Of a DNA stretch of 64,000 bases, positions 28,945-30,762 are shown piece after piece. Source of the stretch: Escherichia phage vB_EcoM_PTE-Eco15. Within the stretch, counting starts at the first letter, position 1. Each line of letters opens with the position of its first letter. The notes beneath the pieces are model-generated. The model saw only the letters and a list, made by a program, of their open reading frames with translations, had not been told where the DNA came from and did not search any database. A program made the position numbers and the translations under genes. Location of the stretch: the sequence record PQ352352.2. One strand, given 5' to 3'.

Positions 28945-30762
28945 ATGATTAAGAATGAAATTAAAATTCTGAGCGATATTGAACATATCAAAAAGCGTAG
29001 CGGCATGTATATTGGCTCTTCTGCTAATGAAATGCATGAGCGCTTTCTGTTTGGTAAATGGGAAAGTGTTCAGTATGTACCTGGTCTTGTTAAGCTTATT
29101 GATGAAATTATCGATAACTCAGTAGATGAAGGTATTCGTACTAAGTTTAAATTCGCAAATAAAATTAATGTTACTATTAAAAACAATCAAGTAACAGTTG
29201 AAGATAACGGTCGTGGTATTCCACAAGCGATGGTTAAAACACCTACCGGTGAAGAAATTCCTGGTCCTGTTGCTGCCTGGACTATTCCAAAAGCAGGTGG
29301 TAACTTCGGTGATGATAAAGAACGCGTCACTGGCGGTATGAACGGTGTTGGTTCTAGTTTGACAAACATTTTTTCTGTGATGTTTGTTGGTGAAACTGGT
29401 GATGGTCAAAATAATATTGTAGTTCGTTGTTCAAATGGCATGGAAAATAAATCATGGGAAGATATTCCTGGAAAATGGAAAGGAACTCGCGTTACTTTCA
29501 TTCCTGATTTTATGTCATTTGAAACTAATGAGCTGTCCCAAGTTTATCTTGACATTACACTAGATCGTCTCCAGACACTTGCTGTTGTTTATCCTGATAT
29601 TCAATTTACTTTTAATGGTAAAAAGGTTCAGGGCAATTTTAAGAAATATGCACGACAGTATGATGAACATGCTATCGTTCAAGAACAAGAAAATTGTTCT
29701 ATTGCGGTTGGTCGTTCACCGGATGGTTTTCGTCAGTTGACGTACGTCAATAACATTCATACTAAGAATGGTGGCCATCACATTGACTGTGTTATGGATG
29801 ATATTTGTGAAGACCTTATTCCACAAATCAAACGCAAGTTCAAAATTGATGTAACTAAAGCACGCGTTAAAGAATGTTTGACTATCGTTATGTTTGTTCG
29901 TGATATGAAAAACATGCGATTTGATTCTCAAACTAAAGAGCGTTTGACTTCTCCATTTGGCGAAATTCGTAGTCATATTCAACTTGACGCTAAAAAGATT
30001 TCACGCGCTATTCTAAATAATGAAGCAATTCTGATGCCAATTATTGAAGCTGCCTTGGCTCGTAAATTGGCGGCAGAAAAAGCAGCAGAAACTAAAGCAG
30101 CTAAAAAGGCTTCTAAAGCTAAGGTTCATAAACATATTAAAGCGAATCTTTGTGGTAAAGATGCTGATACTACTCTTTTCTTGACTGAGGGTGATTCTGC
30201 TATCGGATATCTTATTGATGTTCGTGATAAAGAACTTCATGGTGGTTATCCATTGCGTGGTAAAGTTCTCAACAGTTGGGGTATGTCATATGCCGATATG
30301 CTTAAAAACAAAGAACTGTTTGACATTTGCGCAATCACTGGTCTAGTTCTTGGTGAAAAAGCTGAAAACTTGAATTATCATAATATTGCTATTATGACTG
30401 ATGCTGACCATGATGGTCTAGGAAGCATTTATCCTTCTCTGCTCGGATTTTTTAGTAATTGGCCAGAATTGTTTGAACAAGGAAGAATTCGCTTTGTCAA
30501 AACTCCTGTAATCATCGCTCAGGTCGGTAAAAAACAAGAATGGTTTTATACAGTCGCTGAATATGAGAGTGCCAAAGATGCTCTACCTAAACATAGCATC
30601 CGTTATATTAAAGGACTTGGCTCTTTGGAAAAATCTGAATATCGTGAGATGATTCAAAATCCAGTATATGATGTTGTTAAACTTCCTGAGAACTGGAAAG
30701 AGCTTTTTGAAATGCTCATGGGAGATAATGCTGACCTTCGTAAAGAATGGATGAGCCAATAG
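28945..30762 (+). CDS. 39: DNA topoisomerase II large subunit (GyrB-like ATPase plus TOPRIM), continuous gene-39/gene-60 equivalent
   Basis: 605 aa from ATG; GHKL ATPase N-terminus and TOPRIM AIMTDADHDG in one uninterrupted frame. Confidence 0.92.
   Translation: MIKNEIKILSDIEHIKKRSGMYIGSSANEMHERFLFGKWESVQYVPGLVKLIDEIIDNSVDEGIRTKFKFANKINVTIKNNQVTVEDNGRGIPQAMVKTPTGEEIPGPVAAWTIPKAGGNFGDDKERVTGGMNGVGSSLTNIFSVMFVGETGDGQNNIVVRCSNGMENKSWEDIPGKWKGTRVTFIPDFMSFETNELSQVYLDITLDRLQTLAVVYPDIQFTFNGKKVQGNFKKYARQYDEHAIVQEQENCSIAVGRSPDGFRQLTYVNNIHTKNGGHHIDCVMDDICEDLIPQIKRKFKIDVTKARVKECLTIVMFVRDMKNMRFDSQTKERLTSPFGEIRSHIQLDAKKISRAILNNEAILMPIIEAALARKLAAEKAAETKAAKKASKAKVHKHIKANLCGKDADTTLFLTEGDSAIGYLIDVRDKELHGGYPLRGKVLNSWGMSYADMLKNKELFDICAITGLVLGEKAENLNYHNIAIMTDADHDGLGSIYPSLLGFFSNWPELFEQGRIRFVKTPVIIAQVGKKQEWFYTVAEYESAKDALPKHSIRYIKGLGSLEKSEYREMIQNPVYDVVKLPENWKELFEMLMGDNADLRKEWMSQ

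Follow-up and report, generated by a model that had tools for sequence, protein, structure and literature searches.

Continuous, T2/T6-type topoisomerase II gene 39 in an Escherichia phage that carries a split nrdA

In the 64,000-nt window analysed here (the whole stretch of DNA studied, from record PQ352352.2 of Escherichia phage vB_EcoM_PTE-Eco15), positions 28945..30762 hold a real type IIA topoisomerase ATPase/TOPRIM subunit gene with all motifs in frame, and this gene is very probably the ancestral, never-interrupted large-subunit gene of T-even topoisomerase II. A continuous gene 39 is the majority state, found in ~90% of sequenced relatives, whereas the T4 split with its ribosome hop is the rare exception; the continuous gene is the form of T2, T6 and RB14 and of most Tequatrovirus phages, and is the ancestral, or 'parental', form. 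The unsplit gene 39 of this phage is a correct but ordinary finding that was already known. Bonocora reportedly gave the account of the unsplit gene and MobA in 2011. Both are also in the later literature (Manning and Atkins 2022, 10.1101/2022.08.31.505936), together with a 2024 cryo-EM study of the T6 and T4 enzymes (PMC11461880). The gene therefore carries little weight as a discovery, since unsplit gene 39 is the T-even norm, the T2 and T6 forms are described, including by cryo-EM, and the T4 split and bypass are accounted for by the mobile element MobA. In practice it offers a clean 'empty site' with exactly mapped borders, against which the MobA/bypass element can be compared, and the window also shows independent assortment of homing endonuclease genes.

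The gene 39 reading frame and its product

The ORF listing of the window gave one ORF at 28942..30762 (+) with a GTG start, within which the in-frame ATG at 28945 opens 605 codons plus a stop. This ATG matches the T4 gp39 N-terminus (MIKNEIK) and is preceded by a GAGGA ribosome-binding site 6 nt upstream. From the base composition of the window, the chance of 605 sense codons in a row is ~2e-21 per start and, for all six frames of the window together, ~3e-16, so the frame is not a chance ORF. A frameshift, an internal stop and an untranslated gap were sought in the ORF and in the T4 and T2 alignments of gene 39, and none was found. The gene and its modules are as follows.

28945..30762, + strand: gene 39, topoisomerase II large subunit (GyrB-like ATPase and TOPRIM), 605 aa, uninterrupted T2/T6 type; from the ORF, Pfam, PHROG and the T4/T2/PDB comparison
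29083..29391, + strand: GHKL ATPase core; Pfam HATPase_c and motifs
29692..30096, + strand: transducer domain with QTK loop; Pfam DNA_gyraseB, FDSQTKE with QTK at aa 329-331
30181..30417, + strand: TOPRIM metal-binding motifs LTEGDSA (aa 413-419) and TDADHDG (aa 485-491) on a single polypeptide; motif positions

Pfam assigned HATPase_c to aa 47-149 (E=2e-9), DNA_gyraseB to aa 250-384 (E=1.4e-13) and TOPRIM_C to aa 519-604, and PHROG 543, 'DNA topoisomerase II large subunit', matched residues 1-605 (E=2.4e-295). The GHKL motifs were located at the N-box (EIIDNSVDE, aa 54-62), G1 (DNGRGIP, aa 87-93) and G2 (GGMNGVGSS, aa 130-138), and the TOPRIM sequence AIMTDADHDG occupies residues 482-491 (window 30388-30417). 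The ORF, Pfam, PHROG 543 and motif results bear out the initial annotation, which had described a GyrB-like ATPase and TOPRIM portion in a single 605-codon frame.

Frame continuity, domain content, exact breakpoints, identity to T2 and population frequency were observed directly for gene 39, while near-identical solved structures and knowledge of the family point to the probable enzymatic mechanism. The product matched PDB 8ylu_C with 1385 bits over residues 1-605, and an artificial T4 gp39-gp60 fusion is also among the solved structures. Once ATP is bound, two copies of the GHKL ATPase would dimerise and trap the DNA segment to be transported; the transducer domain with its QTK loop would act as the second module of the 605-aa chain, and the TOPRIM acidic residues E415, D486, D488 and D490 would hold Mg2+ for DNA cleavage by gp52. 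Because the three modules sit on one 605-aa chain, the enzyme is probably a (gp39)2(gp52)2 two-subunit type IIA topoisomerase and not the three-subunit gp39/gp60/gp52 enzyme of T4. The solved T-even enzyme matched at 1385 bits is active, which suggests ATP-dependent DNA relaxation by the gp39 enzyme. The T-even phage topoisomerase relaxes DNA and does not supercoil it.

The gene is flanked by the following features, among them its partner subunit.

28876..28944, + strand: putative upstream control region, with a GC-rich hairpin GGCCTTCGGGCC, then Ts, a TATAAT-like -10 and GAGGA 6 nt before the ATG; read from the sequence
30763..30791, + strand: promoter-like site TTTACT-17-TATAAT, 10/12 match, extended TG; consensus match only
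30817..31020, + strand: rIIA.1, 67 aa, downstream neighbour as in T4 and T2; Pfam T4_RIIA1, E=1.4e-33
31031..33208, + strand: rIIA, 725 aa; colinear with T4 12..2189
37360..38688, + strand: gene 52, topoisomerase II DNA-cleavage (GyrA-like) subunit, 442 aa, gp39 partner; T4 gp52 comparison, PHROG 551

The region upstream of gene 39 may have a control role, as its consensus elements suggest. The promoter-like site lies between gene 39 and rIIA.1, directly after the stop codon of the former; the count of such sites in the gene 39 region was not above the shuffle expectation. The gp52 encoded here differs from T4 gp52 solely by N253D (PHROG 551, E=5e-221).

The empty MobA site and the history of the gene

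We ran the alignments with T4 genes 39/60 and T2 gene 39 named in the initial annotation, and gene 39 was continuous across both. Its product corresponds to T4 gp39 1-473 (98.5% identity) joined directly to gp60 27-160 (95.5%), with the alignment passing from gp39 residue 473 straight into gp60 residue 27-29 without extra residues. In the DNA alignment, a mere 64 nt of the window (30363-30426), with breakpoints at 30362/30363 and 30426/30427, stand opposite T4 2794-3910 (1117 nt), the stretch that holds the gp39 C-terminal extension, mobA, 60.1, the gp60 N-terminal extension and the 50-nt gap. Two features mark the site.

30363..30426, + strand: empty MobA-element site, the 64-nt 'parental' segment replaced in T4; alignment breakpoints and T2 identity
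30415..30420, + strand: GGT CTA (Gly491-Leu492), position of the T4 take-off GGA/UAG/50-nt gap, no gap here; T4/T2 alignment

The bypass position falls after 30417, where the junction reads GAT GGT CTA GGA AGC (D-G-L-G-S), whereas T4 reads GAT GGA TAG, the rest of the 50-nt gap and then TTA GGT. The T4 alignment revealed no mobA gene or remnant between two topoisomerase ORFs at gene 39. The absence of a mobA-type insertion, as initially annotated, was thus upheld by the 64 nt standing against 1117 nt of T4, and the absence of a gene-60 interruption or bypass gap by the in-frame junction. The T4 HomR is only 76% identical to the gene 39 sequence here. The published MobA element is ~1.1 kb long and inserted at nt 1399-1419 with a 64-nt deletion and a HomR of 67-81% identity; its 3' end lies after D490/G491, and HY01 has lost a segment of 64 nt. 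The 64 nt here also fall within the 55-75 nt expected for the parental segment that the element removes. Our breakpoint, deletion and HomR figures agree with this description. The 3' flank was also considered as a co-conversion trace, as it is 99.0% identical to T4 over 30427-31029, but it is also ~98.7% identical to T2 (bin counts) and is simply conserved.

T2 gene 39 (AP018813 2447..4264) has the same length (1818 nt), 97.2% nucleotide identity and one amino acid difference (F70L), and the 110 nt around the MobA target (window 30340-30449) are 100% identical to T2. The MobA element invaded T4 and a minority of relatives, and the 64-nt segment that it replaces is intact here. Because this segment is intact and identical to T2, gene 39 is predicted to be a naive, cleavable MobA homing site, with the nick site probably ~20 nt upstream of 30417, within 30363-30426. 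MobA nicking and homing were reportedly demonstrated on T2 gene 39 (secondary account in 10.1101/2022.08.31.505936). This weighs against an immune allele, in which an altered MobA recognition site would keep gene 39 continuous. Homing sites are sometimes lost via resistant variants, and the promoter and terminator scan, which can be set on the same side, found nothing special at gene 39. However, the site and the 110 nt around it are those of a T2 gene that serves as a MobA nicking and homing substrate, and even HomR-type polymorphisms alone reportedly did not block nicking (10.1101/2022.08.31.505936). We regard an immune allele as exceedingly unlikely.

A junction probe for gene 39 matched 510 phage records, of which 460 had a contiguous junction and 41 a split one; a cassette search found the MobA/bypass cassette in 43 phage records, giving 41-43 overall. 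That faulty assembly or sequencing conceals a frameshift, an insertion or a coding gap in gene 39 is hardly credible, as no point in favour of this was found, the length equals that of T2 gene 39 with one amino acid difference, the gene is contiguous in 460 independent records, and the product aligns over its full length with a solved protein of 605 residues and has all catalytic motifs in frame.

A secondary reversion deserves more weight and is still improbable. In this case the MobA/bypass element would once have been present in an ancestral genome and been removed exactly, through recombination with a co-infecting phage free of it, and the continuous gene would be restored and not primitive. 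T-even phages recombine freely, progressive decay or loss of the MobA element and 'hit and run' cases are described by Manning and Atkins (10.1101/2022.08.31.505936), and segF, segG and I-TevI in this genome point to ancestry or exchange shared with T4-like genomes. However, the published decay products retain the split and the tails (10.1101/2022.08.31.505936), whereas gene 39 here has no CTE or NTE coding remnants and its 64-nt segment and flanks do not depart from T2 over 110 nt. A search of 30363-30426 for a MobA 'hit-and-run' footprint (CTE/NTE remnants, HomR-type polymorphisms) found none. With 90% of relatives free of the element, a gene that was never invaded is the simpler explanation, and it is the one we prefer. 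The present-day sequence would be the same whether gene 39 was never invaded or had gained the element and then been restored exactly by recombination with a naive phage.

Homing endonuclease genes and the split nrdA

All the mobile elements initially listed for this genome (the td intron with I-TevI, segF-like and segG-like genes, and an HNH gene in nrdA) are present in the window. Those outside nrdA, and three window-specific ORFs, are given below.

17285..17959, + strand: segF homing endonuclease gene; 98.7% aa identity to T4 SegF, PHROG 314 'homing endonuclease'
53850..54491, + strand: segG homing endonuclease gene; 98.1% aa identity to T4 SegG, PHROG 7504, E=7e-132
58327..59342, + strand: td group I intron, 1016 nt, carrying I-TevI; Rfam Intron_gpI, 42.5 bits, E=1.8e-8
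58459..59196, + strand: I-TevI ORF inside the td intron; 100% aa identity to T4, Pfam GIY-YIG, I-TevI_ZnF and I-TevI_DNA-bd
4493..4756: ORF43.1, short accessory ORF; no endonuclease signature
28232..28609: 125-aa ORF; PHROG 622, function unknown, no endonuclease signature
57386..57733: 115-aa ORF; PHROG 1928, also in T2, no endonuclease signature

Splicing of td at the 58327/59342 bounds yields a 286-aa TS. SegF and SegG gave no match to Pfam GIY-YIG, and their identity rests on the T4 proteins and PHROG families. Further homing endonuclease genes were sought by listing every insertion or deletion of 150 nt or more relative to T4 and T2, and the other window-specific segments were without endonuclease signatures. 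The comparison of indels with T4 showed that the window lacks three T4 elements, namely segA, intergenic mobE/nrdB.1 and the nrdB intron, and T2 is without segF, segG, the td intron and the nrdA insert, so the mosaic content noted in the initial annotation was substantiated. Its implied surprise, that gene 39 is continuous 'despite a T4-like set of homing endonucleases', was unwarranted, as the continuous gene is the majority (460/510) and each element is patchy, the number of records being 49 for segF, 141 for segG, 197 for the td intron, 41-43 for MobA and 34 for the nrdA insert. Such patchy, independently assorting homing endonuclease content is typical of T-even phages (PMC2988022; 10.1101/2022.08.31.505936).

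The split nrdA is the most interesting feature near gene 39, and nothing novel is left for gene 39 itself. The parts of the split nrdA are as follows.

61534..62469, + strand: 936-nt insertion splitting nrdA; T4/T2 comparison, Pfam, PHROG
60186..61619, + strand: nrdA-a, with its tail at 61533-61616
61665..62375, + strand: MobE-like HNH endonuclease gene inside nrdA
62365..63354, + strand: nrdA-b, with its tail at 62365-62442

The insert is missing from T4 and T2, and 34 of 659 records carry it. The two pieces divide the Pfam RNR barrel profile, positions 1-221 lying in nrdA-a and 219-523 in nrdA-b, and each of them begins with a start codon and ends with a stop codon. The break separates the Cys439/Glu441-equivalent strand from the Cys462-equivalent strand; of the active-site residues, Cys437/438 and Glu439 are in piece a and Cys32 in piece b. 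The tails are oppositely charged, that of nrdA-a being basic (pI 10.0) and that of nrdA-b acidic (pI 4.05). An Rfam search of the whole window at the gathering threshold found no group I intron. A group I intron in the insert was rejected as a candidate, as a permissive search recovered the td intron (42.5 bits, positive control) and nothing credible at 61534-62469, indicating separate ORFs. The MobA and nrdA elements assort independently, with HY01, vB_EcoM_112 and Manna carrying both and UFV-AREG1, like the window, only the nrdA insert.

Comparison with known systems

Compared with T4, gene 39 here is without the 1117-nt element, the mobA ORF, the 43-aa gp39 C-terminal extension and the gp60 N-terminal extension, and it has no take-off GGA/UAG or landing GGA on either side of a 50-nt gap. 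The TOPRIM E and DxD motifs, which T4 divides between gp39 and gp60 as described (10.1101/2022.08.31.505936), lie on one chain here; the genome position and the gp52 partner are the same. T2 and T6 gp39 are likewise single 605-aa large subunits with the same domain order, and their sequence differences from the gene here are neutral only. The T2 and T6 topoisomerases are two-subunit enzymes, with T6 gp39 in the PDB 8YLU series (PMC11461880). T2 also shares the neighbours of the gene (39.1/39.2-type ORFs upstream, rIIA.1 and rIIA downstream), but unlike the genome here it has no segF, segG, td intron or split nrdA.

The GHKL ATPase, transducer and TOPRIM are common to the phage protein, bacterial GyrB/ParE and the N-terminal half of eukaryotic topoisomerase II. 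Full-length matches were obtained to human TOP2A/B and yeast Top2 (E ~1e-56 to 1e-59), and ParE/GyrB matched too. The phage protein is shorter (605 aa) than GyrB, ParE and Top2 and is paired with the short GyrA-like gp52 (442 aa).

For the split nrdA, the known counterpart is nrdA-a/mobE/nrdA-b of Aeromonas phage Aeh1, for which alone assembly of the pieces into an active reductase was demonstrated (PMC3045599). The 936-nt MobE-like element could be a portable 'split-and-reassemble' cassette that, in the manner of the MobA element in gene 39, brings its own oppositely charged tail-coding sequences to the same inter-strand site of nrdA as in the distant Aeh1, independently or by transfer, a proposal to which we give an even chance. 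If so, the window would show a split essential gene (nrdA) beside the naive target of a sister element (gene 39). The split nrdA belongs to a phage of E. coli, a more convenient system, and may serve to test the Aeh1 model of tail-mediated assembly. Aeh1 infects Aeromonas and the phage here is a Tequatrovirus, but both have the same split site and an HNH MobE-like gene whose ORF overlaps the nrdA-b start, and the Aeh1 residues Cys431 and Cys31 stand beside those noted above. The Aeh1 tails have pI values of 10.4 (a) and 3.8 (b), compared with 10.0 and 4.05 here, a likeness of charge from which homology of the tails would be conjectural.

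A single reading frame for gene 39

The initial annotation had placed the topoisomerase II large-subunit gene (gene 39, window 28945..30762, +) in a single 605-codon frame that includes AIMTDADHDG. The ORF at 28942..30762 (+) contained an in-frame ATG at 28945, with a GAGGA ribosome-binding site 6 nt upstream, from which 605 codons and a stop were read; AIMTDADHDG was found at residues 482-491 (window 30388-30417). The product, gp39, started with MIKNEIK, as T4 gp39 does. This ORF is not a chance one, because 605 consecutive sense codons have a probability of ~2e-21 per start at the window composition (35% G+C; stop-codon probability 0.076). 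PHROG 543 'DNA topoisomerase II large subunit' spanned residues 1-605 (E=2.4e-295), all three Pfam domains lay in the one frame, and the catalytic motifs were complete.

Domains and motifs of gp39 (residues)
47-149, HATPase_c (Pfam)
54-62, N-box
87-93, G1 motif
130-138, G2 motif
250-384, DNA_gyraseB (Pfam)
329-331, QTK
413-419, TOPRIM LTEGDSA
485-491, TOPRIM TDADHDG
519-604, TOPRIM_C (Pfam)

Family knowledge and near-identical structures suggest how the enzyme would work. Two gp39 chains would form an ATP-operated N-gate, the transducer would couple hydrolysis to the DNA gate, and the TOPRIM acidic residues would position Mg2+ for cleavage by the tyrosine of the partner subunit gp52, so that (gp39)2(gp52)2 would pass one duplex through another. 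In T4, gp39 and gp60 each contribute part of the TOPRIM site, which element-encoded tails help to reassemble (10.1101/2022.08.31.505936; PMC11461880), whereas the phage studied here needs no such reassembly. Gene 52 was located at 37360..38688, and its product differed from T4 gp52 only by N253D, one of two T4 versus T6 gp52 differences reported (PMC11461880).

An empty MobA homing site

The window, part of a T-even (Tequatrovirus) genome, is colinear with T4 but runs in the opposite orientation (genes 46, 43, 41, 61, 56, dda, 39, rIIA and rIIB, then 52, tail-fibre genes 38-34, 32, frd, td and nrdA, into nrdB). Its gp39 corresponded to T4 gp39 1-473 (98.5% identity) joined directly to T4 gp60 27-160 (95.5%), and two DNA blocks flanked the junction:

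window 28613-30362, matching T4 5661-3911
window 30427-33219, matching T4 2793-1

Between these blocks, 64 nt (30363-30426) were present in the window versus 1117 nt (2794-3910) in T4, which confirmed that no mobA-type insertion interrupts the gene. The T4 segment contained a 43-aa gp39 C-terminal extension, the mobA pseudogene, 60.1, the gp60 N-terminal extension and the annotated 50-nt bypass region; the 46 nt just upstream of the T4 gap were only 76% identical to the window. The bypass gap, also noted as missing, was absent: the window read GAT GGT CTA GGA AGC (D-G-L-G-S) in frame, whereas in T4 GAT GGA TAG leads through the remainder of the 50-nt gap to TTA GGT. Separately, codons 326-328 of gene 39 encoded LIR in the T4 reference (NC_000866) and FDS, part of the conserved transducer motif FDSQTKE, in the window (29920-29928) and T2. 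The T4 record carried a compensating -1/+1 indel pair at these codons, pointing to either a double frameshift or an old sequencing error in this reference.

T2 gene 39 (AP018813 2447..4264) was likewise 1818 nt and aligned ungapped at 97.2% nucleotide identity, F70L being the sole amino-acid difference. Window 27352-33208 formed one colinear block with T2, with no difference over the 110 nt surrounding the MobA target (30340-30449). PDB chain 8ylu_C (611 residues) matched gp39 residues 1-605 at 1385 bits; we infer that it is the His-tagged T6 gp39 construct of PMC11461880. An artificial T4 gp39-gp60 fusion is represented by a second entry, 8yo3_C. T4 has the only known three-subunit type IIA topoisomerase, while those of T2 and T6 consist of gp39 and gp52 (PMC11461880).

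Manning & Atkins (bioRxiv 10.1101/2022.08.31.505936), in their summary of Bonocora et al. 2011, attribute both the split in T4 and its 50-nt gap to one ~1.1 kb mobile element around the HNH homing endonuclease MobA. By that summary, insertion takes place at nt 1399-1419 of the parental (element-free) gene, and the element's end lies immediately after D490/G491. The element removes 55-75 nt (64 nt in HY01), supplies a homologous stretch of its own instead (HomR, 67-81% identical) and gives the two split products C- and N-terminal extensions. Within the target region, the T2 gene is a substrate for nicking by MobA, and the bypass insert ~20 nt downstream shields element-bearing genomes from nicking (10.1101/2022.08.31.505936). 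Window gene 39 is an empty MobA homing site, because it fits the parental state in all values measured here (break after nt 1418, 64-nt segment, 76% HomR, D490/G491). By its identity with T2, the gene is presumably cleavable by MobA; a MobA-resistant allele is extremely improbable, as the target is identical to the T2 substrate. A gene that had precisely lost the element at a later stage would have the same sequence, but such loss is unlikely: no footprint of the element was found at gene 39, and published decay products keep the split and the tails (10.1101/2022.08.31.505936).

A 364-nt junction probe (window 30213-30576) matched 510 phage records, contiguously in 460 and at two separate places, the split arrangement, in 41. 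The T4 cassette occurred in 43 records (nearly full length in 41), including T4 isolates, RB55/RB59, HY01, vB_EcoM_112 and a few Salmonella phages. Given these counts, the continuous gene is the ~90% majority form and T4 the exception. An assembly artefact has a negligible probability, the same gene form being found in T2, in the 460 independent records and in the solved protein. The observation was confirmed and its interpretation supported, but the initial annotation overstated their significance: this is an ordinary, already known T2/T6-type gene 39.

Homing endonuclease genes and other differences along the window

The homing endonuclease genes and intron expected from the sequence were all recovered:

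17285..17959, SegF, 98.7% aa identity to T4 SegF
53850..54491, SegG, 98.1% aa identity to T4 SegG
58327-59342, td intron, 1016 nt (Rfam Intron_gpI, 42.5 bits; spliced TS 286 aa)
58459..59196, I-TevI, 100% identical to T4
61665..62375, HNH gene in nrdA

Four T4 elements were missing: the MobA element (DNA comparison with T4); segA (165 nt at 10724-10888 versus 694 nt); intergenic mobE with nrdB.1 (55 nt at 63351-63405 versus 700 nt); and the nrdB intron, absent at the T4 site, with 63406-64000 colinear with intron-less T2 nrdB to the window end at 64000. None of segF, segG, the td intron and the nrdA insert occurs in T2, so the content is mosaic relative to both phages, as proposed. Such mosaicism is the expected condition, patchy distribution being treated as characteristic in a review of T4 homing endonuclease genes (PMC2988022). 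Counts in the phage collection were 49 records for segF, 141 for segG, 197 for the td intron, 41-43 for the MobA element and 34 for the nrdA insert. The MobA element and nrdA insert occurred together in HY01, vB_EcoM_112, PEC04, vB_Eco_F26 and Manna, and apart in others, such as UFV-AREG1 (nrdA insert with contiguous gene 39). Gene 56 (dCTPase, 16718-17295), adjoining segF, was ~95% identical to the T4 allele and only 69.9% to that of T2, in keeping with the divergence already known for this target gene of SegF.

Other differences were also observed. The DNA adenine methyltransferase gene dam was absent between genes 61 and 56 (16510-16779), where T4 was 899 nt longer (window 16718-16737 versus T4 17724-16826) and T2 1417 nt longer (dam and another ORF). 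An 87-aa ORF between regA and gene 43 (4493-4756; 'ORF43.1' in some records) occurred in 177 of 504 related records and was absent from T4 and T2. Two ORFs were present in T2 and not in T4: one of 125 aa upstream of gene 39 (28232-28609; PHROG 622, weak similarity to goF) and one of 115 aa between frd and td (57386-57733; PHROG 1928). The distal tail-fibre region (42949-50386, -) was only 85-88% identical to T4, compared with 94-98% for the rest of the window; the gene 37 product had 967 aa versus 1026 aa in T4, and gp38 (183 aa) belonged to the T4 type rather than to the T2 adhesin type.

Split nrdA

Among the features linked to the gene 39 finding, the split nrdA stood out as the most interesting. 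Here 936-938 nt (61534-62469) took the place of 32-34 nt of the T4 and T2 gene:

60186..61619, nrdA-a, 477 aa: NrdA residues 1-449 and a 28-aa basic tail (pI 10.0)
61665..62375, MobE-like HNH gene, 236 aa, 45% identical to T4 MobE over 130 aa
62365..63354, nrdA-b, 329 aa: a 26-29-aa acidic tail (pI 4.05) and NrdA residues 452-754

The HNH protein matched PHROG 655 (E=6.6e-59) and carried a Pfam I-HmuI NUMOD-like domain; no intron signal was found in the insert. Of 659 related phage records, 34 carried the insert, mostly annotated nrdA_1/nrdA_2; neither T4 nor T2 has it. Similar insertions in other Myoviridae are noted, as unpublished observations, by Manning & Atkins (10.1101/2022.08.31.505936), and the split nrdA is another case of a known phenomenon, not a new one. 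The split lay between NLCCE (Cys437/438, Glu439) and GLCTL (Cys32 of nrdA-b), the same place as in the 'genes-in-pieces' reductase of Aeromonas phage Aeh1 (Cys431 / Cys31), and the basic and acidic tails matched the pattern of those of Aeh1 (pI 10.4 and 3.8), which are essential for activity (PMC3045599).
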